From positions 5,719,807 through 5,746,085 of the forward strand of contig NC_057718.1 of the NCBI RefSeq assembly GCF_004010195.1: a stretch of DNA of 26,279 nt, read 5' to 3'. Under the pieces are notes generated by a model that made no database searches, was not told the origin of the DNA, and worked only from the letters and a program-made list of their open reading frames with translations. Positions 1 through 25,010 of this stretch are shown here, piece by piece (position 1 is the first letter of the stretch; each line of letters starts with the position of its first letter). The position numbers were made by a program, and so were the translations under genes. Origin of the DNA: Chiloscyllium plagiosum (taxonomy: Eukaryota).

Positions 1-490
1 ATAGCAATTACAGAAACATGGCTCAGGGATGGACAGGACTGGCAGCTTCATGTTCCAGGATACAAATGCTACAGGAAAGACAGAAAGAGAGGCAAGAGAG
101 GAGGGGGAGTGGCGTTTTTGATAAGGGATAGCATTATAGCTGTGCTGAGGGAGGATATTCCCAGAGATACATCCAAGAAAGTTATTTGGGTGAATCTGAG
201 AAATAAGAAAGGGATGATCACCTTATTGGGATTGTATTATATCCCCCCCTAATAGTCAGAGGGAAATTGAGAAACAAATTTGTAAGGAGATCTCTGTTAT
301 CTGTAAGAATAACAGGGTGTTTATGGAAGGGGATTTTAACTTTCCAAACATCGACTAGGACTGCCATAGTGTTAAGAGATTAGATGGAGAGGAATTTGTT
401 AAGAACATGCAAGGAAATTTTCTGGTTCTGGATGTACCTACAAGAGAAGGTGCAAAAATTGACCTACTCTTGGGAAATAAGGCAAGGCAG

Positions 491-684
491 CTGGAAATCT
501 GTTGCTGGAAAAGCGCAGCAGGTCAGGCAGCATCCAGGGAACAGGAGAATCGACGTTTCGGGCATAAGCCCTTCTTCAGGAAAGGGCTTCTCCTGTTCCC
601 TGGATGCTGCCTGACCTGCTGCGCTTTTCCAGCAACACATTTCCAGCTCTGATCTCCAGCATCTGCAGACCTCACTTTCTCCTC
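491..684. mobile_element. Fold-back Penelope-derived short element inserted in the CR1, with a perfect 16-bp TSD
   Basis: TSD aaataaggcaaggcag at 475-490 and 685-700. 61-bp inverted arms 489-549 and 588-648 with one mismatch. Confidence 0.85.
548..583 (-). ncRNA. Minimal hammerhead ribozyme core (PLE type)
   Basis: Minus strand reads c-CUGAAGA-a-GGGC-uuau-GCCC-GAAAC-GUC-gauu, with all core nucleotides present. Stem I is poorly defined in this rearranged copy. Confidence 0.7.
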
Positions 685-3181
685 AAATAAGGCAAGGCAG
701 GTGACTGAGGTGTCAGTGGGGGAGCACTTTGGGGTCAGTGATCATAATTCTATTAGATTTAAAGTAGTGATGGAAAAGGATAGACCAGATCTAAAAGGTG
801 AACTTCTAAATTGGAACAAGACAATTTTGACAGTATTAGGCAAGAACTTTCAAAAGCTGATTGGGCGCAGATGTTCTCCGGTAAAGGGACGGCTGGAAAA
901 TGGGAAGCCTTCAGAAATGAGATAACGAGAGTCCAGAGGAAGTGTATTCCTGTTACGGTGAAAGGAAAGGCTGGTAGATATAGGGAATGCTGGATGACCA
1001 AAGAAATTGAAGTTTTGGTTAAGAAAAAGAAGGAAGCATATGTAAGGTATAGACAGGGTAGATCAAGTGAATTCTTAGAAGAATATAAAGGCGGTAGGAG
1101 TATACTTAACAGAGAAATCAGGAGGGCAAAATGGGGACATGAGATAGCTTTGGCAAAAAGAATTAAGGAGAATCCAAGGGGTTAAGGACAAAAGGTAACT
1201 AGGGACAGAATAGGGCCCCCACAGATCAGCAAGGTGCCTTTGTGTGGAGCCGCAGGAGATGGGGGAGATACTAAACGAGTATTTTGCATCAGTATTTACT
1301 GTGGAAAAGGACATAGAAGATGTAGAATGTAGGAAAATGGATGGTGCCATCTTGAAAAATGTCCATATTATGGAAGAGAAAGTGCTGGATGTCTTGAAAC
1401 TGATAAAGGTGGATAAATTCCCAGGACCTGATCAAGTGTACCCTAGAACTCTGTGGGAAGCTAGGGAAGTGATTGCTAGGCCTCTTACTGAGATATTTAT
1501 ATCATCGATAGTCACAGGTGAGGTGCCATAAGACTGGCGGTTGGCTAACGTGGTACCATTGTTTAAGAAAAGTGGTAAGGACAAGCCAGGGAACTATAAA
1601 TCAGTGAGCCTGACATCGGTGGTGGGCAAGTTATTGGAGGGAATCCCCGAGGGACAGGATGTACATGTATTTAGAAAGGCAAGGACTGATTAGGAATAGT
1701 CAACATGGCTTTATGCGTGGGAAATTATGTCTCACAAACTTGATTAAGTTTTTTGAAGAAGTGACAAAGAGGATTGATGAGGGCAGAACAGTAGACCTGA
1801 TCAATATGGACTTCAGTATGGCATTCGACAAGGTTCCCTATGGGAGACTGGTTAGCAAGGTTAGATTTCACGGAATACAGGCAGGACTAGCCATTTGGAT
1901 ACAGAACTAGCTCAAATGTAAAAGACAGAGGGTGGTGGTGGAAGGTTGTTTTTCAGACTGGAGGCCTGTGACCAGCGGAGTGCCACAAGGATCAGTACTG
2001 GGTCCACTACTTTTCATCATTTATATAAATGATTTGGATGTGAGGATAAGAGGTATAGTTGGTAAGTTAACAGATGACGCCAAAATTGGAGGTGTAGTGG
2101 ACAGCGAAGAGGGTTACCTCAGATTAGAGCAGGATCTTGATCAGATGGGCCAATGGGCTGAAAAGTGGCAGATGGAGTTTAATTCAGATAAATGTGAGGT
2201 GCTGCATTTTGGGAAAGCAAATCTTAGCAGGACTTATACATTAAATGGTAAGGTCCTATGGAGTTTTGCTGAACAAAGAGACCTTGGAGTGCAGGTTCAT
2301 AGCTCCTTGAAAGTAGAGTCACATGTCGATAGGATAGTGAAGAAGGTGTTTGGTATGCTTTCCTTTATTAGTCAGAGTATTGAGTACAGGAGTTGGGAGG
2401 TCATGTTGCGGCTGTACAGGACATTGGTTAGACCACTGTTGGAATATTGCATGCAATTTTGGTCTCCTTCCTTTCGGAAAGATGTTGTGAAACTTGAAAG
2501 AGTTCAGCAAAGATTTACAAGGATATTGCCAGGTTTGGAGGATTTGAGTTGTAGGGAGAGGTTGAATAGGCTAGGGCTATTTTCCCTGGCACTTCGGAGG
2601 CTGAGGGATGACCTTATAGAGGTTTATAAAATCATGAGGGGCATGGATAAAATAAATAGACAAGGTCCCTGGGGTCGGGGAGTCCAGAACTAGAGGGCAT
2701 AGATTTAGGGAGAAGGGGAAGGATATAAAAGAGACTTGAGGGGCAAATTTTTCATGCAGAGGGTGGCACATGTCTGGAATGAGCTGCCAGAGGGAGTGGT
2801 GGAGGCTGGTACAATTACAACATTTAAAAGGCATCTAGATGGGTATATGAATAGGTAGGGTTTAGTGGGATATGGGCTGGGTGCTCGCAGGTGGGACTAG
2901 ATTGGGTTGGGATATCTGGTGGCATGGACAAGTCAGACCGAAGGGTCTGTTTCCGTGCTGTACATCTCTATGACTCTATGACTAACACCAGGGAGAGATC
3001 TGTGACTGGCTGCTGTGTTCTGTGATCGTAGTTTGTGTAAGATAGGCTTGTATTTATATAATTGCTTTCATGTTTATAAAAAACATTTTATTGCCAAACG
3101 AGCTCTTTCAAAGTGCTGTAAGTTTGGAAATACATCAGCCAATTTGTACAGAGAAAGCTCCCGCAATCAGCAAAATGAAAC

Positions 3182-4245: not shown

Positions 4246-4520
4246 TAAATCTTATAGCATGGGGAGTGACATAGCTGGTGAGGTTGTTTAAAACACAGTT
4301 AGATATTGTTAAGCATGGAGGTTCTGCATGAACAACCACCTTGAGTTTTCCCAATCTCGTGACTCATTTTCGTGCAGCCCTAGTGAACTATCCACTTGCT
4401 CCCATTTAGTTCATGTTGCATAAACAGCTGTTGCCCCTGTCCAATGTGGTCGAACACAGTGAGCTCTTGTTGAACTATCACTATGTTGTGATTCTGTTCG
4501 CCGAGCTGGGAATTTGTGTT

Positions 4521-4560
4521 GCAGACGTTTCGTCCCCTGTCTAGGTGACATCCTCAGTGC
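4521..4560 (-). ncRNA. Minimal type-I hammerhead ribozyme, core intact
   Basis: Minus strand: gca-CUGAGGA-u-GUCACCU-agac-AGGGGAC-GAAAC-GUC-ugc. Stem I gca/ugc, stem II 6 of 7 pairs, loopless palindromic ACGU stem III. Confidence 0.8.
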
Positions 4561-4663
4561 TTGGGAGCCTCCTGTGAAACGCTTCTGTGTTGTTTCCTCC
4601 GGCATTTATAGTGGTTTGCCACAGAACACAATAACACAGAAGCGTTTCACAGGAGGGTCCCAA

Positions 4664-4703
4664 GCACTGAGGGTGTCACCTAGACAGGGGACGAAACGTC
4701 TGC
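4664..4703 (+). ncRNA. Mirror hammerhead copy with a core substitution (CUGAGGG, A9 to G)
   Basis: gcactgagggtgtcacctagacaggggacgaaacgtctgc; identical to the minus copy except at position 4673. Confidence 0.7.
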
Positions 4704-4852
4704 AACACAAATTCCCAGCTCGGCGAACAGAACCACAACAACGAGCACCCGAGCTACAAATCTTCTCCCAAAGTTTGAAGAACTATCACTATGTTTTTTA
4801 ACGCTCAGTGATGTCTGAGACAGGAAAATGATGTGCAGAATCTTTCTTACAG

Positions 4853-5739: not shown

Positions 5740-5923
5740 ATAATTTCACTCCTGATCCCCACTGAAGAAGCGGACGATAATGATCTGATTCTGGAGGTGA
5801 CTGCGGGAGTCGGGGGACAGGAGGCCATGTTGTTCACCGCTGAGATGTTCGAAATGTACCAGAATTACGCCTCCTACAAAAACTGGCAGTTTGAGGTTCT
5901 GGATTACTGCCACAGCGATATTG
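5740..5923 (+). CDS. MTRF1L: MTRF1L coding exon (probable exon 3), [61 protein letters not shown](G)
   Basis: Lies within ORF 5668..5997. Acceptor ttgtttcAG, donor G|gtatgt, 184 bp. Release-factor PCRF signature LEVxAGxGGxEA. Confidence 0.95.
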
Positions 5924-6302: not shown

Positions 6303-6501
6303 ATAAAAACAAAAGGTGCTGGAGGAAACAGGTCTGGCAGTATTTGTGGAGAGAGAAATGGAGTGAATCTTTTGAGTCTTGAGACTTAAGCAAAGTCCTC
6401 AAATGTTAACCCTGTCTCTATAGATGCTGCCAGACCTGCTGTGTATTCCGAATACTTTCTGTTTTTATGCAGATTTTCTGCATTTGTGGGTTTTTGCTTT
6501 C
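6303..6501. mobile_element. Older fold-back PLE-derived element
   Basis: Imperfect inverted arms (caggtctggcagtatttgt / atagatgctgccagacctg; ataaaaacaaaag / ctttctgtttttat). Same family vocabulary as 491-684. Confidence 0.65.
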
Positions 6502-6531
6502 ATACTTGCATATATGTAGCCCTTAATGTAA

Positions 6532-7236
6532 TATAAGATCTTGGCAGTGTAGAGGAACAGAGGGATCTTGGTGTGCAGGTACATAGATCACTTAAAATGG
6601 CCACCCAAGTGGACAGGGTTGTTAAGAAAGCATATGGTGTTTTGGCTTTCATTAACAGGGGGATTGAGTTTAAGAGTCATGAGATCTTGTTGCAGCTCCA
6701 TAAAACTTTGGTTAGACCACACTTGGAATACTGTGTCCAGTTCTGGTCACCCTATTATAGGAAAGATGTGGATGCTTTAGAGCGGGTTCAGAGGAGGTTT
6801 ACCAGGATGCTGCCTGGACTGGAGGGCTTATCTTATGCAGAGAGATTGACTGAGCTCGGACTTTTTTCATTGGAGAAAAGGAGGAGGAGAGGGGACCTAA
6901 TCGAGGTATATAAGATAATGAGAGGCATAGATAGAGTCAATAGCCAGAGACTATTTCCCAGGGCAGAAATGGCTAACACGAGGGGTCACAGTTTTAAGCT
7001 GGTTGGAGGAAAGTATAGAGGGGATGTCAGAGGCGGGTTCTTTACACAGAGAGTTGTGAGAGCATGGAATGCGTTGCCAGCAGCAGCTGTGGAAGCAAGG
7101 TCATTGGGGACATTTAAGAGACTGCTGGACGTGCATATGGTCACAGAAATTTGAGTGTGCATACATGAGGATCAATGGTCGGCACAACATCGTGGGCTGA
7201 AGGGCCTGTTCTGTGCTGTACTGTTCTATGTTCTAT
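6532..7236 (+). mobile_element. CR1 LINE 3' fragment (young; 193-aa open ORF2 C-terminus)
   Basis: ORF 6573..7154 contains LVRPHLEYCVQFWSP and FFTQRVV. ttctatgttctat tail. Confidence 0.93.
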
Positions 7237-7289
7237 CTGAAGGCATCATGCAGGAGTAGGATTTGTCACTGAGTCCCATAATGATCTAT

Positions 7290-7540
7290 CAGACTAGGTG
7301 ACCAGAAATTTGAGCTCAGAGGTGGATTTGCTAGCAGAGAGAAATAATAGCGATTTAGGGAGGGCGTTCCAGAGATGGGGTGAGACAGATGAGGGGGGAG
7401 TGATGAAAATTGGGGGATGCTCAAGAGGCCAGAATTGGGGGAGTGCAGTGATCTTGCAGGATTGAGGGCTGGTGGAAGTTGCAAAATGAGAAGGGATAGG
7501 CCATGGAGGGATTTGTAGACAAAAATAACAAGTTCCAAGT
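7290..7540 (-). mobile_element. Old L2-like LINE fragment
   Basis: Reverse-complement similarity to 18090-18520; minus ORF remnant FVYKSLHGL. Confidence 0.55.
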
Positions 7541-7542
7541 TG

Positions 7543-7739
7543 GGTATGGAATGAGCTGCCAGAGGAAGTGGTGGAGGCTGGTACATTTAAGAGGCATTTG
7601 GATGGGTATATGAATAGGAAGGGTTTGGAGGGTTATGGGCTGGGTGCTGGCAGGTGGGACTAGATTGGGTTGGGATATCTGATTGGCATGGACGGGTTGG
7701 ACCGAAGGGTCTGTTTCCGTGCTGTACATCTCTATGACT
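7543..7739 (+). mobile_element. CR1 3' tail fragment
   Basis: Near-identical to 2775-2983, ending ctctatgact. Confidence 0.9.
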
Positions 7740-7769
7740 GTCCTCTTTCTGTAAGTTAGTGCTAAAGGT

Positions 7770-8090
7770 TAGATTAGATTACTTACAGTGTGGAAACAGG
7801 CCCTTTGGCCCAACAAGTCCACACCGACCCGCCGAAGCGCAACACACCCAGACCCATTCCCCTACATTTACCCCTGCACCTAACACTATGGGCAATTTAG
7901 CATGGCCAATTCACCTACCTGCACATTTTTTTTGGACTGTGGGAGGAAACCGGAGCACCCGGAGAAAACCCACGCAGACACGGGAAGAATGTGCAAACTC
8001 CACACAGTCAGTCGCCTGAGGCGGGAATTGAACCCGTATCTCTGGCGCTGTGAGACAGCAGTGCTAACCACTGTGCCACCGTGCCGCCCC
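7770..8090 (-). mobile_element. HE1-type tRNA-derived SINE
   Basis: Minus-strand A box (tggcacagtgg) and B box (ggttcaattcc), aatct tail repeats, possible TSD taaaggt at 7763 and 8092. Confidence 0.88.
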
Positions 8091-8109
8091 TTAAAGGTGT
8101 TCCTTTAAG

Positions 8110-8689
8110 ACAAGAGTCATAGAGGAGGAGGAATTTCTTCTCTCAGAGGAGAGTGAATCTGTGGACTTCTATACTGCAAAGGGCTCCAGTTGGCAAGGTC
8201 ATTTAGTATACTCAGGTCTGAGATATATTTTTAATCAGTAAAGGAATCAAGGGTTATGGGGATAAGATAGGAAAGTGGAGTTGGGGATTATCAGATAATC
8301 TAAATGTATGGCAGAGCAGACTTGATGGGTGTAATCGTGAGGGGCATAGATAGGATAAACAGACAAGGTCATTTCCCTGGAGTGGGGGACTCCAGAACTA
8401 GAGGACATAGGTTTAGGGAGAGAGGGGGAAAATTTAAAAGAGACTTAAGGGGCAACATTTTCATACAGAGGATGGTGCGTGTATAGAATGAGCTTCCAGA
8501 TGAAGTGGTGGAGGTGAGGACAATTACAATGTTTTAGAAGGCATCTGGATGGGTACATGAATAGAAAGAGTTTAGAGGGATATGGGTCAAGTGCTGGCAA
8601 ATCGGACAAGATTAGGTTAGGATATCTGATCGGCATGAACGAGTTGGACTTATGGGTCTGTTTCCATGCCGTATAACTCTATGACTCTA
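8110..8689 (+). mobile_element. Two adjacent CR1 3' fragments (about 8110-8330 and 8333-8689)
   Basis: Similar to the 3' ends at 11780-12025 and 2630-2983; ends ctctatgactcta. Confidence 0.8.
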
Positions 8690-8771
8690 AATGGCCTTGG
8701 TATGCAGTTATGATCTGATTGTTTTACTGTTCCTGTAAGCTAGTATTAAAAGTTGGTCTTTTATTTCACAG

Positions 8772-8935
8772 GGGGTCTGCGTCATGCTGCAGCTAGTGTG
8801 AGTGGCCCGGAGACTTACAAACACATGAAGTACGAGGGGGGAGTGCATAGAGTCCAGCGGATTCCCAAAACTGAAAAACAAGGCAGGACTCACACCAGCA
8901 CAATGACCGTCGCCATCCTACCACAGCCCACTGAG
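8772..8935 (+). CDS. MTRF1L: MTRF1L coding exon (probable exon 4) with the PxT stop-codon recognition motif, (G)[54 protein letters not shown]
   Basis: Acceptor ttatttcacAG, donor GAG|gtatt, 164 bp. [14 protein letters not shown] is the RF1 signature. A plain PKT tripeptide, without the extended loop of MTRF1, favours MTRF1L. Confidence 0.97.
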
Positions 8936-9084
8936 GTATTCACAATCTTCTCAGCAATTTGTACCAATTCCTGACTAAATTGACAGCTGCCCAAAGGTTT
9001 GTCTTAAAGGAGAAGAGGGAGGTGGAGTGCTTTTGGGGAGGAGTTGTAAAACTTAGGGAGCTGAAGGCACATCCATGATTACAA

Positions 9085-9120
9085 TCTCTCTCTCTCTCTC
9101 TCTCCCTCTCCCTCTCCCCC
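9085..9120. repeat. (CT)n / CT-rich microsatellite
   Basis: tctctctctctctctctccctctccctctccccc. Confidence 0.9.
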
Positions 9121-9140
9121 TCGTATTTCAAGCTTGCTTG

Positions 9141-9365
9141 ACACTGCCCCTATTAAACCCATACAGGACAGTTATAGTATGAGGTTATATACAGAGTAGA
9201 GCTCCCTTAAGACTGTCCTCACCAAACTCTCCCAGGACAGGTACAGCTCTGTCAGATTCAGAACAAAGCTCCTTTGACACTGTCCTCATCAAACATTCTC
9301 AAGACAGGGACATTGTGGGGTTAGGTACAGATTAAAGTTCCCTCCATACTGTGCTCCAAAACACA
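9141..9365. repeat. Degenerate tandem repeat of about 68 bp, about 3.3 copies
   Basis: Units start at 9141, 9210, 9277 and 9346 (acactgtcctcatcaaac...caggacagg...tacagagtaaagctcc). Confidence 0.8.
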
Positions 9366-9839
9366 GTGTAAATCTGGAATATGCTTTCCAGTTTACAATG
9401 GTTATTTTACTAAGATAGTGCAAATCTAACCTGCTTCAGTTTATACAAAAATCTGGATGTATCAGAAAAAGTCTTACAAAACATGAACTGGTAGTAACTA
9501 TCCATTGTCTCCTATACGTGGCTTCATCCCCACACAATGTCTTTGACTCTTAATATTCTCTGATGTGGAATTAGCCATCAAGTTGTATCACCTTACCAAG
9601 AGAGAGATTTCAGTTTAAAAGGAGGAGAGAGAGAGAGGGACAGAGTGTTGGGGTGAATCTATTGGAGCTTGGATATCTGAGGACAAAGCCTCCAATGAAG
9701 GGCTTGAGGATGTTGGGGTTGTGTAAGAGGCTGGAATTAGACAGACTGTGGATATTTGCTGGACATGTAGTAATTGGATAGAATAATGGGTATGATCCAT
9801 GTCTTCACACATCTGATTAATCAATAATCTTGTTATCAG

Positions 9840-9957
9840 ATTGACATGACCATCAACCCCAAGGATCTGCGGATAGAGACAAAACGGGCAAGTGGAGCTG
9901 GTGGTCAGCATGTGAACACGACAGACAGTGCGGTTCGCATCCTGCACATCCCAACAG
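9840..9957 (+). CDS. MTRF1L: MTRF1L coding exon (probable exon 5) with the catalytic GGQ motif, [39 protein letters not shown](G)
   Basis: Acceptor tgttatcAG, donor G|gtaaca, 118 bp. [18 protein letters not shown] is the universal class-1 release factor motif. Confidence 0.97.
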
Positions 9958-10304
9958 GTAACAGCAGTCCCTTGCTCTCACCCAAGTGTACATCTGTAAT
10001 ACCGTGGGTTTCATTTGCAGTTACTGGAGAATTCTGACTGTGATGCTGAGATGAAAAAGTAATAATTGCATCCTTTTCTCAGTTAGTTGGTGAAGGAGGA
10101 GCATTACGTATCCTCAGTGAGTACGGTCACTGAGTTGGGAACATTGATGGGGATTCATTGGAACAATTTCTAGTATTATTTGTCTGTCATGCTTCCTGCA
10201 TTATGATGATAATTATATTAATTAAATGTATTTAATTGGCTACTTTGGGATCCTGAAATGCAGTTGCATTTGTTCTGATACTGGTTCATTCTGCCCCTTG
10301 GCAG

Positions 10305-10441
10305 GTGTGGCAGCTGAGTGCCAGCAGGAAAGGTCCCAGCTGAAAAATCGAGAAAAGGCGATGCAGATGCTGCGAGCGAAACTATACAGCATGAAGCTGG
10401 AGGAGCAAACTAACAAGAGACATTATGCTCGAAAGATTCAG
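10305..10441 (+). CDS. MTRF1L: MTRF1L coding exon (probable exon 6), (G)[45 protein letters not shown]
   Basis: Acceptor ccccttggcAG, donor CAG|gtacct, 137 bp, phase 1 to 0. [10 protein letters not shown] motif. Confidence 0.96.
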
Positions 10442-10687
10442 GTACCTCTGTGGCCTTGCTTTCAACTCCTCTTGGTTTTCCCCATGCTCCTGCTGAGTCT
10501 CCAGACTCATACAACTAGTTCCATTTCCACAGCAGTCAGCTCAAAGAGTGCCAGTCTGCCAGGGTGACTGTTGGGCTATTTGACTTTGGGAGGAATCACA
10601 GGGAGGTCCGATCCTGGCTTCATACAGGAATCACTCCACTGGGATATTCCCCTGTTCATTTGGCTCCCTGTCCAGTGTTTTTGCCTC

Positions 10688-12025
10688 GTGTACAGCTGGT
10701 GACAAGTGGTGTTCCGCAAGGCTCAGTGTTGGGACCATAATGTTTCACTTTATACATTAACGATGTAGATGAAGGAACTGAGGCCATTCTTACTAAGTTT
10801 GCAGACGATACAAAGAATACTACCTGTACCTCTACAGGTAGTATTGAGGAGGTGGGGAGGCTGCAGAAGGATTTGCACGGGTTGGGAAAGTGGGCAAAGA
10901 AGTGACAGATGGCGTACAATGTGGGAAAGTGTGAGGTCACGCACTTTGGTCAGAAGAATAGAGGCATAGACTATTTTCTAAATGGGGAGAAAATTCAGAA
11001 GTGCAAAGAGACTTGGGAGTTCAAGTCCAGGTTTCTCTCAAGGTAAACTCGTAGGTGGTTTAGATTAGATTCCCTTCAGTGTGGAAACAGACCCTTCGGC
11101 CCACCAACCCTCCGAGAGTAACCCACCCAGACCCATTTCCCTACCATCTTTACCCCTGACTAATGCAACTAACATTATGGGAAATTTAGTATGGCCAATT
11201 CACCTACCTGCATATTTTTGGATCGTGGGAAGAAACCGGATGAAACCCACGCATACCCGGGGAGAATGTGCAAACTCCACACAGACAGTCGCCCAAAGTG
11301 GGAATCGAAACCGGGTCCCTGGCGCTGTGAGGCAGCAGTGCTAACCACTGAGCCATCGTGCCACCCATGAGTCAGTAGTTAGGAAGGCCAATGCAATGAT
11401 GGCATTTATTTCAAGAGGACTTGAAACTAAAAGCAGGGATGTGCTTCTGAGGCTCTATAAGGCTCTAGTCTGGCCACATTTGGAGTATTGTGTGCAGTTT
11501 TGGGTCCCATATCACTGGAAGGATGTACTGGCCCTGGAGCTTGTTCAGAGGAGATCCATAAGAATGGGCCCAGGAGTGAACAGCTTAATATATGAGGAAC
11601 GTTTGAGGACTCTGAGTCTGTACTCAATGGAGTTCAGAAGGATGAAGGGGGATCTAATTGAAACTTACAGAATACTGAATGGCCTGGACAGAGTGGATGT
11701 TGGGAAGATGTTTCTGTTGGTAGAAGAGACTGGGACCCAAGGGCACAGCTGTCGAATAAAGGGAAGACCATTTAGAACAGAGATAAGGAGAAACTTCTTC
11801 AGCCAGAGAGTGGTGAATCTATGGAATTCACTGACACAGAAGGCTGTGGAGGCCAGGTCATTGAGTATATTTAAGATGGAGATAGACAGGTTCTTGATTG
11901 TAAAGGGGATCAAGGGTTACGGGGAGAAAGCGGGAAAATGGGGTTGAGAAACTTATCAGCCATGATTGAATGGCAGAGCAGGCTCAATGGGGTGAATGGC
12001 CTGATTTCTGCTCCTATGTTTTATG
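10688..12025 (+). mobile_element. CR1 LINE 3' part (RT from [10 protein letters not shown] and FADDTK onward), interrupted by a SINE
   Basis: agtggtgttccgcaaggctcagtgttggga; tttgcagacgatacaaag; ORF 11396..11947. Confidence 0.9.
11058..11366 (-). mobile_element. HE1-type SINE nested in the CR1
   Basis: Colinear with 7770-8090; CR1 sequence resumes after it. Confidence 0.88.
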
Positions 12026-12199
12026 GATACAGCCTTTCCACATCTGCCCTGCAAAGTCCCCTCGTAATTGTGTATGTATTAATAAGGCTGCCTCTCATTC
12101 TTCTATACTTTGATGAGTGCAGGCCTGATCTACTCAAGCTCTCTTTGTAAGACAGTCCCTTTTATACCTGATATCAGCCGAGTGAACCTTCTCTGAACT

Positions 12200-12590
12200 T
12201 TTTTAAAAAATTATTTCATGAAACGAAGGCATCACTGGCTAGACCACAATTAAAAGTCAACCACATTTCTGCGAGAAACAGAAGTTGTTGGAAAAGCTCA
12301 GTACATCTGACAGCCCCTGTGGAGAGAAATCCGAGTTAACCCTTCCTCAGAACTAATTCACATTGCTGCGAGTCTGGAGTCATATGTAGGCCGGACCAGG
12401 TAAGGATGGCAGTTTCCTTCCCTGAAAGACATTAGTGAGCCAGGTGGGTTTTTACTGGATGCCTGGTCATCATTTGAACTCATAATTACAAATTTATATT
12501 GAATTCAAATTCCACCATCTGCCATGGTGGGATTCAAACACAGGTCCCTAGACCATTACCTGGGTCTCTGGATTAACAGTCTGATGACAA
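12200..12590 (-). mobile_element. SINE (same family as 3182-3568) interrupted by a PLE-derived piece at about 12275-12352
   Basis: aagtcaaccacatt ... cacattgctgcgagtctggagtcatatgtaggccggaccaggtaagg. The insert has ttggaaaagctcag...ctgtggagagaaatccgagttaacccttcctcagaac. Confidence 0.65.
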
Positions 12591-12923
12591 ACTTCCCAGT
12601 TCTTTCTCAGAGGGTTAGTCATCTGTGGAATCCTCTCCCTCAGCAAGTAGTGGAGGCTGGTCATTGAATTCATTCAAGGTTGAGTTGGGAGAGACCCTTG
12701 ATAGGCAAGAGTGTTAAGTGTTATAGGGCAGACAGGAAAGTTGGGTTAAAGAACACAGTCTGATCACCATGGTATTATTAAATGACAGAGCAGACTCAAA
12801 GGATTGAATAACCTGCAGATGCTGGAAATCAGAACAAGTTTTGAGTTTTTCCAGCAATTACTGTTTTTCTTACTGTATAGCTTGCTCCTACTCCTAAGAC
12901 CCATATTCCTATGACTACACAAC

Positions 12924-13017
12924 CAGTTCTGAAAAAGAGTCGCACTGGACTCGAGATATTAATTCTGTTTCTCTTTCCATTGATGCTGCCAGACCTGCTA
13001 TGTTTCTTTAACAATTT
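12924..13017 (+). mobile_element. PLE-derived element with a decayed hammerhead
   Basis: CTGAAAA-a-GAGTC-gcactg-GACTC-GAGA-tatt followed by gatgctgccagacctgct. Confidence 0.6.
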
Positions 13018-13336
13018 GGGGCAGCACAGTGGCTCAGTGGTTAGCACTGCTGCCTCACAGCACCAGGGTCCCAGGTTCAATTCCAGCCTCAGGTGACTGT
13101 CTGTGTGGAGTTTGCACATTCTCCCTGTGTCTGTGTGGGTTTCCTCTGGGTGCTCCGGTTTTCCCCCCACAGTCCAAAGATGTGTAGGCAAGGTGAACTG
13201 GCCATGCTAAATTGCCCATAGTGTTAGGTGTACTAGTCAGAGGGAAATGGGTCTGGGTGGGTTACTCTTCGGAGGGTCGGTGTGAACTGGTTGGGCCGAA
13301 GGGCCTGTTTCCACGCTGTAGGGAATCTAATCTAAT
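13018..13336 (+). mobile_element. HE1-type SINE, full length
   Basis: A box tggctcagtgg (13030), B box ggttcaattcc (13074), aatctaatctaa tail. Confidence 0.9.
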
Positions 13337-13954
13337 TTATTTCTTTGTTTTGTGGCATTAATGGCTTTCTCATTATCACCTTCTTTTGTCATTTAACCAG
13401 CATTATGGCAAACTGATCTGTTGTGTTTGCTCTTCTGGCTCTGAATTTCCTTAGACTATTCATCCCTGAAGCCTTCCAATTCCATTGAAAGGTCATTGAC
13501 TTGAAACATTAAGACTGTGTTTGCTGTCAGTCCTACTGAATTAGTGATGTTGACTGAGAGATAACTATTGGCAAAGTACTGATGTCACCTTCCTTATTCA
13601 AACTAAAACTGTAGAGTCATTCCCATGCTGGTAAGGTTCTGGGGACTGTTGCTGAACAAAGAGACCATAGACGGCACGTTCATAGTTTCTTGAAGGTGGA
13701 GTCGCAAGTAGATAGGATAGTGAAGAAGGCATTTGGTATGCTTGCCTTTATTGGTCACAGTGTTGAGTACAGGAATTGGAAGGTCATGTTGCGGCTGTAC
13801 AGGACATTGGTTAGGCCACTTTTGGAATACTGTGTTCAATTCTCGTCTCCCTCCTATAGGAAGGGTGTTGTGAAACTTGAGAGTTCAGAAAAGGTTTACA
13901 AAGATGTTGTCGGGTTTTAGGGTATGAGCTGTAGGGAGAGGCTGAATAAGCTGG

Positions 13955-14114
13955 AGACAGAAAAAACCTGCAAATGCTGAAATCCAAAGTATACAAACAG
14001 GAGGCTGGAAGAACACATCAAGCCAGGCAGCATTAGGAGTTGAAAAAGTCAATGTTTTGGGTATAATCCTTTTTCAGGACTGGACCAATCCTGAAGAAAG
14101 GTTATATCCAAAAT
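13955..14114. mobile_element. PLE-derived insertion with two opposed decayed hammerheads and a 14-bp degenerate TSD
   Basis: TSD gctgaataagctgg (13941-54) and gctgaatagactgg (14115-28). Cores: minus cctgaaaaaggattatacccaaaacattg; plus cctgaagaaaggttatatccaaaatg. Confidence 0.7.
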
Positions 14115-14172
14115 GCTGAATAGACTGGGGCTACTTTCCCTTGAGCGTCGGAGGCTGAAGGGAGACCTTATA

Positions 14173-15165
14173 GAGTCAGAGAGATGTACAGCACGGAAAC
14201 AGACCCTTCAGTCCAACCCGTCCATGCCGATCAGATATCCCAAACCAATCTAGTCCCGCCTGCCAGCACCCGGCCCATATCCCTCCAAACCCTTCGTATT
14301 CATATACCCAGCCAGATGCCTCTTAAATGTTGCAATTGTACCAGCCTCCACCACTTCCTCTGGCAGTACGTTCCATACACATACCACCCACTGTGTGAAA
14401 AAGTTGCCCCTTAGTTCTCTTTTACATCTTTCCCCTCTCACTCTAAACCTATGTTCTCTAGTTCTGGACTCCCCTACCCCAGGGAAAGGAACCCTATCCA
14501 TTTACCCTATCCATGCCCCTCATGATTTTATAAACCTCTATAAGGTCATCCCTCAGCCTCCGACACTCGAGGGAAAACAGACCCAGCCTATTCAACCTCT
14601 CCCTATAGATCAAATCCTCCAACCCTGACAGCATCCTTGTAAATCTTTTCTGAACCCTTTCAAGTTTCATAACATCCCTTCTAATAACAAGGACACCAGA
14701 ATTGCTCTCAATATTCCAACTGTGGCCCAACCAATGTCCTGTACAGCCGCAACATGTCCTTCCAACTCCTGTACTCAATACTCTGACCAATAAAGGAAAG
14801 CATACCGAACACCGCCTTCACTATCCTATCTATCTGTTGACGCTTTTTTCAAGGAGCTATGAACCTGCACTCCAAGGTCTCTTTGTTCAGCAACACTCCT
14901 AAGTACCTTACCATTAGGTGTACAAGTCCTGCTAAGATTTGCTTTCCCAAAATGCAGCACCTCACAGTTTTGGTATCATCTGTAAACTTACTAACTATAC
15001 CTCTAATGCTCACATCCAAATCATTTATATAAAAGACAAAAAGCAGTGGACCCAGCACCGAACCTTGTGGCACTTCACTGGTCACAGGCATCTAGTCTGA
15101 AACACAACCCTCCACCTCTGCCCTCTATCTTCTACCTTTTGAGCCAGCTCTGTATCCAAATGGCT
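14173..15165 (-). mobile_element. CR1 LINE 3' part, inserted antisense inside another CR1; internal deletion near 14965
   Basis: Minus ORFs 14250-15091 ([28 protein letters not shown]); tail at 14173. Confidence 0.92.
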
Positions 15166-15509
15166 ATAAAATCATGAGGGACATAGATAGGGTGAATTGC
15201 CAAGGTCTTTTCCCCAGGGTAGCCGAATCCAAAACTTGAGAGCATAGGTTTAAGGCAAGAGGAGAAAGCTTTAAAAAGGGACCTAAGGGGTAACCTTTTC
15301 ATGCAGAGGGTCGTGTGCATATGGAATGAGTTGCCAGAGGAAGTGGTGGAGGCTGGTACAATCACCATTTAAAGGGCATCCAGATGGATAAATGAATAGG
15401 AAGCATTTAGAGAGAAATGGGACTAGATTAATTTAGGATATCTGGTCGGCATGGACGAGTTGGTATCTTTCCAGGCTGTTTAGCTCTTTGACTCAATGAC
15501 ACTAGTAGG

Positions 15510-15820
15510 GAGGGGCAGATTGAGTACATTGGTTCAGTGGTTAGCATTGCTGTCTCTCAGTGCCTGGGTTCAATTCCAGCCTTGAGCAAATGTCTATGTG
15601 GAGTTTGCACATTGTCTCCACCTCTGTGTGGGTTTCCTCCAGGTGCTCTGGTTTCCTGCCACAGTCCAAAGTTGTGCAGGATATGTGGATTGGCCATGGG
15701 AAATGCAGAGTTACAGGGATGGGATAGGAGTATAGATCTGGATGGGATGCTCTTTGAAAGGTCGGTGCGGACTCGATCGGCTGAATGATCTACTTCAACC
15801 CTCGGGGATTCTATGGTCCT
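15510..15820 (+). mobile_element. Diverged HE1-type SINE
   Basis: tggttcagtggttagc ... gggttcaattccagcc ... tgtggagtttgcacatt. Confidence 0.8.
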
Positions 15821-15869
15821 CCCTTTAACATATTATTTGCAAGGAGAAAGGCCGCAGAAAGCTGTGGAG

Positions 15870-16562
15870 CAGAGGGATTTGTGAGTTCTCGTCCAAGAAC
15901 CATCAAAAGGCTAGTATTAAACTCAGTGGGTCATTATAAAACAAATGGAATGTTGAACTTTATTTCAAAGGAAATGGATCATAAAAATAAGGAGGTTTGT
16001 TATAACTACACAAGGCTTTAGCCAGATCATACCTGAAATACGATGAACAGTTTTGGGTCCCTTATCTGAGGAGAAATATACAGCATTGGAGGACGTCCAG
16101 GCCTTTTTCTGTTCTGTTGACCTCTGTAACTAATATTTAAGACGGTGATGAAGGTAAATTTATTCTGTCAAGGGGTATTGAATCTGTGGAATTCTTTACT
16201 ACAGAGAGCTGTTGAGGCTGGGACATGTTGAGGCTAAGGCTACTTAAAGCTGAGACAGACAGATTTTTAATTAGGAACGGAATTGAGGAAAATCTGAAAG
16301 AACTGTGGGTGCTGTAAATCAGAAACAGTCACAGAAATTGCTTTAAAAATGCAGCAGGTCTGGCAGCATCTGTGGAGATAAATCAGAGTTAACATTCTGG
16401 GTTGAGTGAGTCTTCTTCCAAACAGGGAACTGAGGGTTATTGGGATAAGGAAGAAAAATGGAATTGAGGATAAAGAGATTAGCCGTGATTTTATTGAATG
16501 GCAGAACCGACTCAATGGGCTGGATGGCCTCCATCTGCTCTTTTATTTTATGGTCTTATGAA
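15870..16562 (+). mobile_element. Old CR1 3' fragment with a nested PLE-derived element (16289-16425, minus)
   Basis: Remnant NGMLNFISKEMDHKNKEV and ttttatggtcttatg tail. The insert is flanked by ggaattgagg (16279) and ggaactgagg (16426). Confidence 0.7.
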
Positions 16563-17481
16563 AGATGATGTATTAGACAGTGCAGCCCTCACTCAGTGTT
16601 CCAGTGTGGGTGTCTGTGCTCAAGTCCTGAATTGGGAATTCCTAACCTTGTGACTTAGAGACGAACCACAGCTGATAATCTTGTTAAAGTATAAATATCT
16701 TTAAATCCCTTATCAAAGAGCCTTTTATAGTGATGCTGTGGAATTTAAGTAAGATTTCCAAATAAAAACTAACATAGACAATTTGCAGTTTTACTTACCC
16801 TATTGTAGAAATAGTATTAATGTAATCAGGCACTCCCAGGAGTTATCTGGGATGTGAGATTACAGTTCTGTCTGGAGCCCTGAGATACCAGGACTGTTTT
16901 CAGTTGAGCAGAAAAGGTTGTGAGGATATTGATTAGGTTGGAGTATCAAGAGATCTGAGTAAAGTGGAACTCAATCATGATCTGATTGAATGGCAGCATA
17001 GGTTGAAGGGGCTGAATGGCGTTTGTGTGTTCAACACTGGAGTAAGGTTCTAAAGCCTACTGAGTACCCTCAGTTAGTTTGCGATGAGATGTTTGCGTTG
17101 GTACATTTTGAAATAGAATGAGGCCATTCAGTGCCTCCAGTCTGTTTCGCCTCCATTCAATTAAATCATAGCCATTCTGCATCTTAACATCAACTATCCG
17201 TCTTAGTTTTGTATTCCCTGATCTCTCTGTTAACAAAATCTGTCACTTAATTGTGAAATGTTCGATTGACCCAGAACCTCAGTAGCGTCATGTAGGGAGA
17301 GAGTTCCAGATTTCCACTGAGCTGTGTGCGAGGAAGAAGCACTCTTGAGATCCTTCCTGAATGGCTTAGCTGCACATTAAAACTTGGGGCTCCTTTATTC
17401 TAGGCTCCCCAGGCAAATGGCATAAGTTCAGCCTGTCTTAAGTTACGAGTGATCTGCCAACTTCTCCAATTCTTTCTCCAG

Positions 17482-17712
17482 GTTGGGACCAAGGGAAGGT
17501 CGGAAAAAATCCGGACGTACAATTTCCCTCAAGATAGGATTACCGATCATCGGACTGGCAAGTCATTTCATGACTTGAGGACTTTCATGATGGGGGAGGA
17601 GCTCTTGGATGAGATGGTTGAAGATCTGAAGAGTCTGGCAGACAGTGAATCCCTTCTCGAGTTCCTGGAACAGAGTACATCGAGCCAGCAAAATGAGCAA
17701 AGACATCAGTGA
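17482..17712 (+). CDS. MTRF1L: MTRF1L terminal coding exon (probable exon 7), [24 protein letters not shown]...EQRHQ*
   Basis: Acceptor ttctttctccAG. [19 protein letters not shown] release-factor motif. TGA at 17710-17712. Confidence 0.96.
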
Positions 17713-18639: not shown

Positions 18640-18740
18640 CAACAAAAAGAAATTGCTGAAGATGCTCAGTTGGTTTGGCAGCATCTGTGGAGACTGATCA
18701 CCGTTAATATTTTGCTTCCAGTGACCCTTCGTCAAAACAG
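18640..18740 (-). mobile_element. PLE-derived short element, decayed
   Basis: gaaattgctgaag...ggcagcatctgtggaga...gttaatatttt...gtgacccttcgtca. Confidence 0.6.
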
Positions 18741-20417: not shown

Positions 20418-20531
20418 GCCTTATGCCTGAAACGTCGATTCTCCTGCTCCTCAGATGCTGCTGACCTGATGTGCTTTTCCAGCGCCACACTTTTCGACTC
20501 GGATCGCCAGCGTCTGCAGTCCTCACTTTCT
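20418..20531 (+). mobile_element. PLE-derived short element, 5'-truncated within the hammerhead
   Basis: cttatgcctgaaacgtcgattctcctgctcc...ctgcagtcctcactttct, homologous to the 491-684 element. Confidence 0.75.
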
Positions 20532-20663: not shown

Positions 20664-21855
20664 CATAGAACATAGAACAATACAGCACAGACCAGGCCCT
20701 TCGGCCCACGATGTTGTGCTGAACATTTGTCCTAGCTTAAGCACCCATCCATGTACCTATCCAATTGCCACTTAAAGTTTGCCAATGATTCTGACTCTGC
20801 CACTCCCACAGGCAGCGCATTCCATACCCCCACCACTCTCTGGGTAAAGAACCCACCCCTGACATCTCCCCTATACCTTCCACCCTTCACCGTAAATTTA
20901 TGTCCCCTTGTAACACTCGGTTGTGCCCGGGGAAAAAGTTTCTGACTGTCTACTCTACCTATTCCTCTGATCATCTTATAAACCTCTATCAAGTCACCCC
21001 TCATCCTTCGCCGTTCCAACGAGAAAAGGCCGAGAACTCTCAACCTAGCCTCGTACGACTTCCTCTCNNNNNNNNNNNNNNNNNNNNNNNNNNNNNNNNN
21101 NNNNNNNNNNNNNNNNNNNNNNNNNNNNNNNNNNNNNNNNNNNNNNNNNNNNNNNNNNNNNNNNNNNNNNNNNNNNNNNNNNNNNNNNNNNNNNNNNNNN
21201 NNNNNNNNNNNNNNNNNNNNNNNNNNNNNNNNNNNNNNNNNNNNNNNNNNNNNNNNNNNNNNNNNNNNNNNNNNNNNNNNNNNNNNNNNNNNNNNNNNNN
21301 NNNNNNNNNNNNNNNNNNNNNNNNNNNNNNNNNNNNNNNNNNNNNNNNNNNNNNNNNNNNNNNNNNNNNNNNNNNNNNNNNNNNNNNNNNNNNNNNNNNN
21401 NNNNNNNNNNNNNNNNNNNNNNNNNNNNNNNNNNNNNNNNNNNNNNNNNNNNNNNNNNNNNNNNNNNNNNNNNCTCCTCACTATCCACAGCTCCACCAAT
21501 CTTCGTATCATCTGCAAATTTACTGACCCACCCTTTGACTCCCTCATCCAAGTCATTAAAATCCATGTATACTACATCCACTGCTCTACCCTCATCCACA
21601 TGCTTGGTCACCTCCTCAAAGAATTCAATAAGACTTGTAAGGCAAGACCTACCCTTCACAAATCCGTGCTGGCTGTCCCTAATCAAGCAGTGTCTTTCCA
21701 GATCTCATAAATCCTATCCCTCAGTACCCTTTCCATTACTTTGCCTACCACCGAAGTAAGACTAACTGGCGTGTAATTCCCAGGGTTATCCCAATCCCTT
21801 TTTTGAATAGGGGCACAACATTCGCCACTTTCCAATCCCCTGGTACCACCCCTGT
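20664..21855 (-). mobile_element. CR1 LINE fragment spanning the assembly gap, with internal deletions
   Basis: Minus ORFs with QHGFVKGRSCLT, FADDTKIGG and FFTQRVV; catagaacatagaa tail. Confidence 0.9.
21068..21473. other. Assembly gap (406 N)
   Basis: Run of N. Confidence 1.
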
Positions 21856-22170
21856 ATTTTTAAAGTTGTACATTTTATTTTTATTTCTGACAACAGGTCT
21901 GTTGGATACTCTTGTCATTTCAACAGATGAGTGCAGCAAAACAAATAGTCCAATCTACAGTCTTGACGGATGTTCTCTCATATGCAATATCTGATCAAGT
22001 CTTAATTTGTGTAACTGATTGATAATGTTAATGGGGTGGAGATTTGGCTTTTGGTACTCACTTGACCCGAAGGCAAGCTGTCCTGAAATGCTGAAATCAC
22101 CAGATTTCCCTGTTTAAGTCTGACCATGGCTGCTCCCCCCAGTTTGCAATTGGGGATCCAATTTGCAAGC

Positions 22171-22267
22171 TCTGAGGAAGGGCCACTCGAACTGAAACAT
22201 TAACCCTGATTTCTCTCTACAGATGGTGCCAGATCTGCTGAGCTTTTCCAGCAATTTCTGTCTTTTG
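22171..22267 (+). mobile_element. PLE-derived element beginning at a partly decayed hammerhead
   Basis: CTGAGGA-a-gggcc-actc-gaact-GAAA-catt. Flanks tgcaagctctga (22164) and tgcaagatctga (22268). Confidence 0.7.
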
Positions 22268-22462
22268 TGCAAGATCTGAAATTGTCTTTGTCTATACTTT
22301 TGGGATGTACTGTGCAGAATTAGCTGGAGAGTATTGCCTTTGGTATGTAAGAATCCTAGCTGTTATACTACAGATGAGCTCTGATAAACGTGTTCTCACT
22401 GCCAGGTACGCAGTTGTAATGAAATGTATTTTCCAAATTATTTATTTATAATATCATTGACT

Positions 22463-22945: not shown

Positions 22946-23057
22946 AAACGTCTTGTTTGCAAAACATTATTTATTTGTTATTTAATGAACCAAGATAGTT
23001 AGTTCTGGTACTGATCACTGCATTACAGAATCACAAAATTCTCCTGGTGCAGAAGAC

Positions 23058-23675
23058 AGCCAGACTACTAATTCCCCTCAGAATCCTAGTAGCACACAAA
23101 CCCACCAACACTCTCAAACCAAAACTAACAAACTTAAAATCCCAGTACAACTCATGGACAAAACCAACATCGTCTACAAAATTCCATTCAAGGACTGCCA
23201 CAAACACTACGTAGGACAAACAGGAAGAAAGTTAGCCATCAGGATACACGAAAACCAGCTAGCCACAAAAAGACACGACCCTCTCTAAAACCAGCTAGCC
23301 ACAAAAAGACACGACCCTCTCTCCCTCGTAGCCCTACAAATGGAAGAAAAACACCATTTCGACTGGGACAACACATCTATCCTGGGACAGGCTAAGCAAA
23401 GACATGCCAGAGAATTCCTAGAGGCCTGGCACTCCAACCACAACGCCATAAACAAACACATAGATCTAGATGCCATCTATCAACCCCTCAGAAAACAAAC
23501 AGGAAATTACATCACCACAAACCCCAGAAACTCTATCCAGGACAAACTTATAAATAGAATGCAGGAGACAACAGCTTCGCTTCACTTGGAGGTCACCACT
23601 GATAATGTTACCTAGCCAGGTAATGAAACGTCCGGACATCAAACCTACAGCTCAGCGAGCAAACCTACACCCTAT
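23058..23675 (+). mobile_element. Penelope-like retroelement 3' fragment: GIY-YIG endonuclease pseudo-ORF plus terminal hammerhead
   Basis: From 23154: MDKTNIVYKIPFKDCHKHYVGQTGRKLAIRIHENQLA...HHFDWDNTSILGQAKQRHAREFLEAWHSNHNAINKH (xVY-x-C-YVGxT-R...E...N pattern). Confidence 0.9.
23596..23635 (+). ncRNA. Hammerhead ribozyme motif of the Penelope fragment (G8 to A substitution)
   Basis: cca-CUGAUAA-u-GUUACCU-agcc-AGGUAAU-GAAAC-GUC-cgg. Confidence 0.7.
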
Positions 23676-25010
23676 AGCCATTTGGCCTGCATTGCTGTCT
23701 GAGCATTTGAAGTTGATATCAATCTCCTGGCTATTGCCTCTAACCCTGCAAATTGCATCTATTTATTTGATAATTTAAATAATCATCCAATGAATGCCAC
23801 AATTGCCCTGCTCCAACACTTCCAGGCCATGCATTCCATTACCTAACTACTCACTGTTTTATTTTTCCATCTCACATTTTCCTCTTTTGCAAAACACCTT
23901 AAAACTGTGCCCTCTGGTTCTCGATCTGTTCACAAACAAGAACGGTTTCTCCTTATATACTCTTTCCAGCCTCACCTCATGATTTTGAACACTTCTTTCA
24001 AAGGTCCTCTTAGCCTTCCCCTAATACAAGGAAAATAGTCCCAACTTCTCCAATCTCCCCTCTCAACTGAAGCGTCACAACCTTAGAACCATTCTCACAA
24101 ACAGCTTCTGCATTTTACCAGTGCAATCATCTTTTTCCTATAGCGTGGCAGCCAGAACTGTACACAGTACTCCAGGAGAAGTCTAACCAATGCTTTATAC
24201 ATGTGCATCATAACCTCCTGGTTCTTATAGTCTATCTCCTTATTTATGAAGGCAAGAATATTACATATGTATTCAGGTCTCTGTTCCAATACCCTTGTGA
24301 AAGAGAACTCTTTATAACGTCTGTCCATGTTCCTTATCTGAAACCTCACCCTCCTCCCCTCTGAACTCCATCTTCAACTTCACTCCCCACAAGTCATTGC
24401 CCTTTTGAAGTTCTAGCGTCTGCCTCAGTTTGTAATTCTCCAAAGTTTTGTGTAATCTGAAAACTTTGAAATTGTCCCTTGCACACTAAGATGTAGATCA
24501 TTTCTGTATATCAGAAAAAACAAGGATTCCAAAACCAACCCCTAAGGAAACTCCACTACAAATTTCCATCCAACCTGTAAATACCCAGCAACCAATTCCT
24601 CTCTGTTTCCTATCCCTCAGACAATTTTGTATGCATGGTGCTACTGTCCATCTTATTCCACGATCTATAACTTTCCTCGCAAGTCTGTTGTGCAAAACTG
24701 TACTGAACACCTTTTGGAAATCCATGTAAAGAACAATAACAGCCTTGCCGAACTTCAGCAGATTCATAAGACATCTCACGAAGGGCTTTGGCCTGGAACG
24801 TTGACTTTCCTGCTCCTCGGATGCTGTCTGACCGACTGTGCTTTTCCAGCTTCACATCTATTGACTCTGGTTTCCCGCATCCGCAGTCCTTACTGTCTCC
24901 CAGTTAACAAATCAATGCTGACTCTCTGAATCAACCCACATTTCATCATGTAATTATTAATTTGATCCTGAATAAATGTTCCCAGAAGTTACCCCACCAC
25001 TGAAGTTAAT
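23676..25010 (-). mobile_element. Old CR1 LINE, interrupted by a PLE-derived element at about 24778-24900 (+)
   Basis: Minus ORFs with YKALVRLLLEYCVQFW and YMDFQKVF. The insert gaagggctttggcctggaacgttgactttcctgctcctcggatgctg belongs to the 491-684 family. Confidence 0.8.

Follow-up and report, generated by a model that had tools for sequence, protein, structure and literature searches.

Short hammerhead-bearing elements in a Chiloscyllium plagiosum locus and their relation to Penelope-like elements

A 26,279-nt stretch of the genome of the shark Chiloscyllium plagiosum (NC_057718.1:5,719,807-5,746,085; 25873 non-N bases), referred to here as the window, was described previously from its letters alone as carrying ten short related elements, most of which begin at or within a hammerhead ribozyme motif. 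The locus raises the question of what these elements are: extreme truncations of autonomous Penelope-like elements (PLEs), or a non-autonomous, retrozyme-like lineage mobilized by PLE enzymes. Here, we compared the elements with one another, with public sequencing runs and with published PLEs. We are highly confident that the ten elements are the 3' terminal module of endonuclease-positive (EN+) PLEs. Their truncation is non-random and piles up just upstream of the hammerhead. We give about an even chance to the explanation that they are stubs which autonomous PLEs made by copying a template RNA as far as its start, a few bases upstream of the hammerhead.

A family of short elements and its insertion architecture

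Pairwise nhmmer comparisons within the window showed that 10/10 of the listed stretches are related. A leave-one-out profile recovered each element with E values of 7e-10 to 3e-23, and the best match in the reversed window had an E value of 0.27 or worse. Alignment A1 contains a body common to all elements, which together cover 1297 of the 25873 non-N bases, or 5.0%. The dense set of ten short elements with a common body described previously was therefore borne out. Each arm of an element consists of the hammerhead, a body of ~60 nt and an optional tail of ~36 nt, for a length of 80–140 nt. Sorting by eye from alignment A1 gave approximately three subfamilies: A (elements 1, 8 and 10, at 491, 20418 and 24778), B (elements 2, 3, 4, 6, 7 and 9, at 6303, 12275, 12924, 16289, 18640 and 22171) and C (element 5, at 13955). 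Two weaker copies, not in the first list, were also found (E 0.002–0.05). The copy at 12802–12871 is a small head-to-head remnant with the tail on one side, the body on the other and no hammerhead (E 0.002–0.003), and the decayed remnant at 13487–13539 (plus strand) holds stem II, GAAAC and the start of the body (E 0.047).

Three of the ten elements (491–684, 6303–6501 and 13955–14114) are head-to-head inverted pairs, a feature absent from the preliminary description. Element 1 is inserted in a CR1-like long interspersed element (LINE) and is flanked by an exact 16-bp target-site duplication (475–490 and 685–700, plus strand). Its left arm (491–582, minus strand) has the hammerhead and body with no tail and begins 3 nt upstream of hammerhead position C3. 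The inverted right arm (589–684, plus strand) begins 2–3 nt past the presumed ribozyme cut site and has a 36-nt tail at 649–684. Element 2 is a decayed pair with arms at ~6303–6390 (minus) and 6397–6501 (plus); the right arm alone has a tail, and no duplication was found. Element 5 combines a full arm with its tail (14083–13955, minus) and a 26-nt inverted arm (14089–14114, plus) that contains the hammerhead only, up to about the cut site, between duplications at 13941–13954 and 14115–14128. Overall, the tail is present on 6/13 arms and is one-sided in 3/3 pairs.

The remaining elements have one arm each. Element 3 (12276–12353, minus) begins 3 nt upstream of C3, has stem II and GAAA deleted and lacks a tail; its duplication (12262–12275 and 12359–12372) comes with five extra bases. 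Element 4 (12923–13017, plus) begins ~6 nt upstream of C3 and has a paired 5-bp stem II and a decayed GAAAC, and its 3' end is broken by a tRNA-type short interspersed element (SINE) at ~13018–13335. Element 6 (16289–16425, minus) begins 5 nt upstream of C3 and has a tail and a weak 10-bp duplication (16279–16288 and 16426–16435). Element 7 (18640–18740, minus) begins ~5 nt upstream of C3, with no tail and no duplication found. Element 9 (22171–22267, plus) begins 1 nt upstream of C3 and has no tail, and its duplication (22164–22175 and 22268–22279) overlaps the first bases of the element, indicating microhomology. Elements 8 (20418–20531, plus) and 10 (24778–24900, plus), both tailed and in the same subfamily as element 1, begin inside stem II and inside CUGANGA, respectively. 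Nesting provides relative ages, as elements 1 and 5 lie inside CR1-like LINEs, element 3 lies inside another short repeat, and a SINE interrupts element 4.

We scored candidate flanking duplications against 300 random position pairs. Five of the ten elements have candidates of 10–16 bp with unrelated sequences, compared with four claimed previously. Two are clear, as the duplications at 491 (16 bp, exact) and 12275 (14 bp, one mismatch) beat all 300 null pairs. Those at 22171 (12 bp) and 13955 (14 bp) are marginal, being matched by 1.3% and 3.3% of null pairs, and the one at 16289 (10 bp), matched by 10%, is weak. The same scoring found none at the other five elements.

Genome-wide evidence came from public sequencing runs X1, X9, X18 and X21 aligned to window segment 455–602, where X9 is a DNA run from organism B and X21 is an RNA run from organism A (a poly(A) single-cell library). 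In two DNA runs, 51,219 and 56,538 contigs matched. Many opposite-strand joints were present in the reads, with palindrome centres that vary between copies. Inverted joints with 1–3 nt of microhomology, 581–582 with 571–572, occurred in 26 contigs of X1, 12 contigs of X9 and 27 reads of X21. No tandem array of the element was found within the window. Among the more than 100,000 contigs aligned, a head-to-tail joint with an 80-nt step was seen in 3 contigs from X1 and 1 from X9.

The published PLE insertion unit has an inverted truncated copy, a 30–40 bp tail on one end and 8–10 bp duplications (PMC8557442, PMC3846280). The Penelope origin proposed previously is supported by the minimal hammerhead ribozyme (min-HHR) architecture, the inverted pairs, the one-sided tail, the long and variable duplications, and the same hammerhead form found downstream of GIY-YIG endonuclease sequence in metagenome loci (see below).

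The hammerhead and the sharp 5' edge

Within the window, only one minimal hammerhead of the family is intact, that in the left arm of element 1 (552–579, minus strand). It has C3 at 579, an extra A after A9, a 4-bp stem II formed by 571–568 with 563–560, GAAA at 559–556 and a palindromic ACGU, and is presumed from its sequence to cut between 552 and 551. An intact core with a paired stem II is thus present in 1/13 arms, with remnants in most others. Stem II pairs at 4/4 positions in three arms (491 left, 12924 and 24778), at 3/4 in two and at 2/4 in three, and in 12275 it has been lost by deletion. Five exact CTGANGA..GAAA matches occur in the window, versus 3.6 expected by chance, and only 2/5 of them are in the element family. 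Rfam hammerhead models gave no match in the window even at E 5, and an Rfam mir-3127 match at 520–617 was rejected as the palindrome of element 1. Folding energies were ordinary: the monomer folds no better than shuffles (z −0.7 to −0.8), and the predicted dimer fold differs from the active hammerhead form.

Among 11 MAFFT-aligned arms, 74% of stem II cells pair, versus 13–42% with the partners slid, and two-sided changes occur at 3/4 stem II pairs. The covariation score was reached by 6/500 shuffles, a control that ignores the kinship of the 11 rows, one of which (6303) is misaligned. The earlier claim that stem II varies yet stays paired is therefore only partly borne out: the double changes agree with it, but full pairing is restricted to three arms and one copy has lost the stem. 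Read variants give stronger evidence on the hammerhead. Among the 40 of 103 rows listed, the non-CpG core positions A13, A14, A15.1 and the extra A vary by 0.05–0.4%, N7 varies by 14–35%, loop II by up to 20% and one stem I base by up to 36%. Core CpG positions vary by 5–18%, in line with the decay that methylation would cause. The low core variation suggests that propagating elements kept the hammerhead core. The hammerhead is real at the family level and mostly decayed in the window copies. The X21 reads showed no RNA-end peak at the GUH cut site, although a library of poly(A) RNA from single cells tests this poorly, and no monomeric linear or circular RNA with cut-site ends, for which the library is unsuited. 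A listing on record of sequencing runs that contain the sequence named no RNA run, which says nothing about expression.

The arms that keep C3 all start 1–6 nt upstream of it (8/8), and the edge is fixed by a duplication or palindrome centre in six of these and by alignment alone in two. The reported position of the hammerhead, at or within the start of most elements, agrees with these eight arms and with five that start further inside; what most copies retain there is a remnant. With a constant stop rate of up to 0.05 per base, the observed edge has a p value of 7e-5 or lower. We compared it with metagenome copies from 120 loci chosen by the same hammerhead pattern. The comparison used 84 copies from families of at least three members with enough flank, which left out 40/124 motif copies from smaller families or with short flank. 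Upstream of the hammerhead, 6 of the 84 copies end no more than 7 nt away, 13 end no more than 15 nt away, and 50 reach at least 40 nt (Fisher p 2e-6 for the contrast, and 2e-4 for the five arms of one subfamily). Two other PLE copies in the window run 60 and ~560 nt upstream of their hammerheads. We also considered the edge as a splice junction and rejected this, as copies keep bases upstream of AG and two subfamilies have no AG.

Longer parents, a proposed mechanism and its rivals

We then looked at the records that continue upstream of 582. There were 730, 721, 115 and 547 of these, with agreement of 0.34, 0.35 and 0.34 in contigs and 0.48 in raw reads; contigs merge shared sequence and overstate unique flanks, and the raw run is weighted by expression. 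Tail-side agreement in the same raw run was 0.78, and a rough upper bound for the share of its records with a common upstream sequence is 24–28%. The upstream consensus sequences of X9 and X21 match at 23/30 letters by hand count, and at 18/25 after the first five (p 1e-6 to 1e-3). This agreement spans two organisms and two library kinds and concerns subfamily A. Therefore, some subfamily A copies continue into a longer multi-copy form. The preliminary description had left the choice between truncation and a retrozyme-like lineage undecided. Of the two, we favour extreme truncation: some copies, though a minority, run on into common upstream sequence, as expected of a longer parent. A retrozyme in the tandem sense was not found in the window.

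Additional evidence on the kind of element comes from the metagenome loci. A GIY-YIG-like match was found in eight of the 120 loci, with the hammerhead downstream on the same strand in 7/8; at least 400 nt of upstream sequence was available for this search at 62 motif copies. In six of these (L045, L052, L063, L084, L027 and L073), a PLE endonuclease with a CxxC linker lies 222–344 nt upstream of a hammerhead whose stem II is near-identical to that of subfamily A. This likeness may reflect either shared ancestry or convergence of a 27-nt motif. The loci share the hammerhead alone and not the body, and therefore support the kind of element, not parentage. Similar ends presumably belong to Neptune-type PLEs in shark assemblies.

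Searches of sequence and protein collections revealed no parent. Protein searches for a parent open reading frame (ORF) starting in the body gave one match among 28 candidates, five matches of which four were unrelated repeats, and 0/5 candidates, all weak negatives. Three protein searches yielded no reverse transcriptase (RT)-bearing protein with the body. Scans with the body pattern gave 0 and 5 matches in viral sequences, 0 and 0 in prokaryote genomes and 0 in metagenomes; the five viral matches were discarded, as their similarity is confined to the typed motif region. A hammerhead-pattern scan of viral sequences gave 0 matches. The GIY-YIG fragment at 23136–23612 of the window was also rejected as the parent, as its terminal repeat is unrelated to the body.

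Under the explanation that we prefer, the elements would be dead-on-arrival insertions of the 3' end, or pseudo-long terminal repeat (pseudo-LTR), of EN+ PLEs of approximately three subfamilies. A GIY-YIG/RT protein would nick the target and prime at one of two sites ~36 nt apart, producing copies with or without the tail. The two end classes are observed here; the priming chemistry is that published for an anole element, and would apply by analogy. The cDNA stops a few bases upstream of the hammerhead, most likely at the start of the template RNA. One example would be a transcript that initiates in the upstream pseudo-LTR and is primed at the first of its tail sites, giving something like a strong-stop product. 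Both target strands would often be primed, and the two cDNAs would join their ends by microhomology, giving the observed head-to-head pair with a tail on one arm. Such dual priming would explain why the tail is on one side only; fold-back alone cannot. Staggered nicks would leave the 10–16 bp duplications, observed in two to five copies. Longer parent copies would be a minority, as the upstream reads indirectly show, and selection would keep the hammerhead in propagating elements while it decays in inserted copies.

Several observations weigh against this explanation. Five of the 13 arms start further inside the element than the edge, a common upstream sequence is seen for one subfamily only, and the X1 and X18 upstream consensus sequences are unlike those of X9 and X21. 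The body was not found attached to an RT or GIY-YIG ORF in the window, the collection scans or the protein searches, and the 120 metagenome hammerhead loci have no body homology. The 84 copies used for comparison were picked for intact hammerheads and drawn from other families. No pile-up of RNA starts or ends was observed in the reads, although the library, being poly(A) and single-cell, tests this poorly too. Finally, in Drosophila virilis Penelope the start site is ~120 nt upstream of the hammerhead, made up of 46 nt and a 75-nt intron ending at helix I (PMC2377424, PMC4209133), and a start at the hammerhead edge therefore differs from the arrangement known.

We consider it unlikely that the elements are instead a dedicated non-autonomous lineage, in which ~130-nt masters that arose from a PLE end, in one event or more, would be transcribed from their own 5' edge and mobilized in trans by the PLE enzyme, like a SINE with no RNA polymerase III (pol III) promoter. 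Such masters fit the sharp edge in 8/8 arms, the unique flank at most upstream loose ends and the very high abundance (51,219 and 56,538 contigs). The initiator consensus is pyrimidine-A-pyrimidine, and a similar motif with its A at −4 occurs in 12924, 13955L and the subfamily A read consensus; it is missing in 16289 and 18640, however, and common by chance. In a rotifer, a pseudo-LTR alone sufficed for trans-mobilization (PMC3846280). Still, a longer multi-copy subfamily A form exists, and the same edge is present in approximately three subfamilies with different stems, for which a single mechanism is simpler than repeated deletions. Palindrome centres also vary by copy, so the pairs were not copied from a palindromic master. 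A structural stop with the same parents, where the cDNA folds back or switches template once stem I has been copied, ending the copy or starting the inverted arm, is quite unlikely. The edge does coincide with the 5' strand of stem I (3–4 bp), and the inverted joints use 1–3 nt of microhomology (581–582 with 571–572). But an RT that moves 3' to 5' on RNA would be expected to stall at the 3' foot of a stem and not after passage, and the stems are weak. Palindromes at inverted junctions are taken as self-priming in PMC3846280, yet fold-back alone cannot place a tail on the second arm only. Other families with a hammerhead of the same form mostly read through it, and so do the window's two other PLE copies.

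The other two alternatives are further from the data. For a non-LTR retrozyme, tandem units would be cut by their hammerheads into monomers or circles, reverse transcribed and dispersed. The hammerhead is type I, retrozymes derived from PLE pseudo-LTRs have been reported from one chondrichthyan (bioRxiv 10.64898/2026.07.22.740005), and 3 X1 contigs and 1 X9 contig show head-to-tail joining with an 80-nt step. Against more than 50,000 contigs, though, such joints are few, and the window holds no tandem array. The start of the copies is ~30 nt upstream of the cut site and not at it, circular permutation is absent, and the units are 80–140 nt with a minimal hammerhead, versus published units of 150–450 nt with canonical hammerheads (PMC7229834). 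A retrozyme is thus largely refuted for the window copies and very improbable as an explanation of the family, although arrays may exist elsewhere in the genome. The chance of a miniature inverted-repeat transposable element (MITE) or a tRNA-derived SINE is practically negligible, and we ruled both out. The ~90-nt arms of 491–684 resemble the long terminal inverted repeats of a MITE, but 7/10 elements are single arms, the arms are unequal, the centres vary and the duplications are long (10–16 bp) and of unrelated sequence. A tRNA-derived SINE would have A and B boxes, and, in agreement with the earlier account, the window's 12 B-box and 11 A-box matches all fall outside the listed elements. 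As a positive control, the tRNA-type SINEs at ~8025–8078, 13030–13083 and 15530–15576 hold both boxes. ARAGORN found no tRNA genes in the window, and the elements contain no tRNA.

A more speculative reading concerns the cut site. Among the 12 of 54 rows listed, with orientations pooled, 7/11 joints that leave position 582 and have intervening letters reach 548–552, which is the cut site. Both short arms also have an end within 3 nt of this site: the right arm of element 1 begins 2–3 nt past it, and element 5 has a short arm whose end is just short of it. Most PLE insertions might come from RNA that starts 4–8 nt upstream of the hammerhead, whether they are strong-stop products or derive from self-sufficient 130-nt masters (a pol II "PLE-SINE"), and in pairs one cDNA would reach that start while the other often ends at the cut site. 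We regard this proposal as doubtful; microhomology of stem I predicts the same joint positions as cleavage does. If a cDNA does end at the cut site, the genome would preserve, as a fossil record, in vivo cutting by the hammerhead, which PLEs are not known to undergo.

Other features of the window and comparison with known systems

A second PLE family is present as a head-to-head pair at 4488–4779, with arms at 4484–4594 and 4630–4740 that are 96% complementary. Its hammerhead (4557–4528, minus strand) has an intact core, and the pair has a ~39-nt tail on one arm and an exact 16-bp duplication (4472–4487 and 4780–4795). The pair is young and not truncated at the hammerhead. The 3' part of another PLE at 23038–23674 encodes a frameshifted GIY-YIG endonuclease whose relatives carry RT. 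It contains an internal 36-bp tandem duplication (23251–23322) and a terminal repeat with a hammerhead variant (~23599–23633).

The translated body was observed in two database proteins, in residues 285–312 of P0006 and the C-terminal part of P0001, one of which is a PDZ-domain protein. In both, it begins at the same ATG, after a pyrimidine-rich tract and often CAG, and a branch-point-like CTGAC lies 18 nt before a second AG in the body. The body may serve as a splice acceptor and become exonized, or may only mislead gene predictors.

The window also holds a mitochondrial peptide-chain release factor-like gene with PCRF and RF-1 domains (exons at 5758–5922, 9840–9956, ~10305–10441 and 17481–17700), and half of the listed elements (6303 to 16289, five in all) fall in its introns. 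Other repeats present include CR1-like LINEs and tRNA-type SINEs, which we take to be CR1 and HE1. A transposon protein fragment has relatives named from Hemiscyllium, Stegostoma and Chiloscyllium. An assembly gap of ~400 N (21068–21473) is inside a CR1-like LINE, and a GC-rich stretch with CCAAT-like boxes at 25480–26279 resembles the next gene's promoter and first exon.

Solo minimal hammerheads of truncated PLEs are known from fishes, the coelacanth and frogs. The class is thus known, and only the sharp start point is unusual. We found no description of this shark family, its body motif or its 5' edge in the openly accessible literature, with Repbase, Dfam and most subscription papers outside the search. 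What makes the family useful is its copy number together with the sharp 5' edge. PMC8557442 and PMC11167929 pose as open questions what the PLE hammerhead does and how the inverted copy and the tail arise. A single assembly, with its tens of thousands of very short insertions whose junctions can be read, could test the RNA start, two-strand priming and cutting in vivo. In addition, ~5% coverage of the window and a body that appears as a predicted exon in two proteins matter for shark repeat annotation and gene models. Whale shark has Penelope elements and 10.85% unclassified repeats (PMC8455134).

Like animal non-LTR retrozymes (Cervera 2020, PMC7229834; Li, Clavereau, Pollet 2026, bioRxiv 10.64898/2026.07.22.740005), the shark elements are non-coding, have a type I hammerhead of PLE pseudo-LTR origin and occur as many dispersed monomers. 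Retrozymes, however, are defined by tandem hammerhead units and circular RNA, neither of which was seen for the shark family, and the 2026 survey sampled one chondrichthyan. Truncated metazoan PLEs leave thousands of mostly single min-HHR motifs per genome, with opposite-strand pairs 100–700 bp apart (Cervera and De la Pena 2014, PMC4209133). The motif has CUGANGA with an extra base, a G-C closing stem II, GAAA, a 4-nt palindromic ACGU for stem III and a 3–4 bp stem I, all as in the shark family. The shark stem II is short, at 4–5 bp, and the sections of that paper covered name no sharks and describe no piling at the 5' edge of the motif.

In the anole Poseidon element PAc (Anolis carolinensis), RT starts at two internal sites, one on either side of the tail, and both strands are extended (Frangieh 2024, PMC11167929). 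PAc resembles the scheme proposed for the shark family in these starts and in two-strand extension, and the family itself in a pseudo-LTR hammerhead and in that no RNA ends were found at the cut site. It differs in that the PAc ORF starts in stem II, where the shark family shows no such conserved start, and the strong-stop step that we propose is not a part of the PAc scheme. With the EN+ PLEs as a whole (Penelope/Poseidon, Neptune, and also Nematis), the shark family shares 5' truncation, an adjacent inverted copy, a one-end tail, duplications, microhomology joints and a 3' hammerhead (Arkhipova 2013, PMC3846280; Craig 2021, PMC8557442; Goubert 2022, PMC8969392). Unlike them, the shark unit is only 80–140 nt per arm, has a fixed 5' edge and duplications of 10–16 versus 8–10 bp, and showed no ORF. 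A further likeness to Neptune and Nematis is the CxxC linker in the metagenome endonuclease pieces that lie beside the same hammerhead form.

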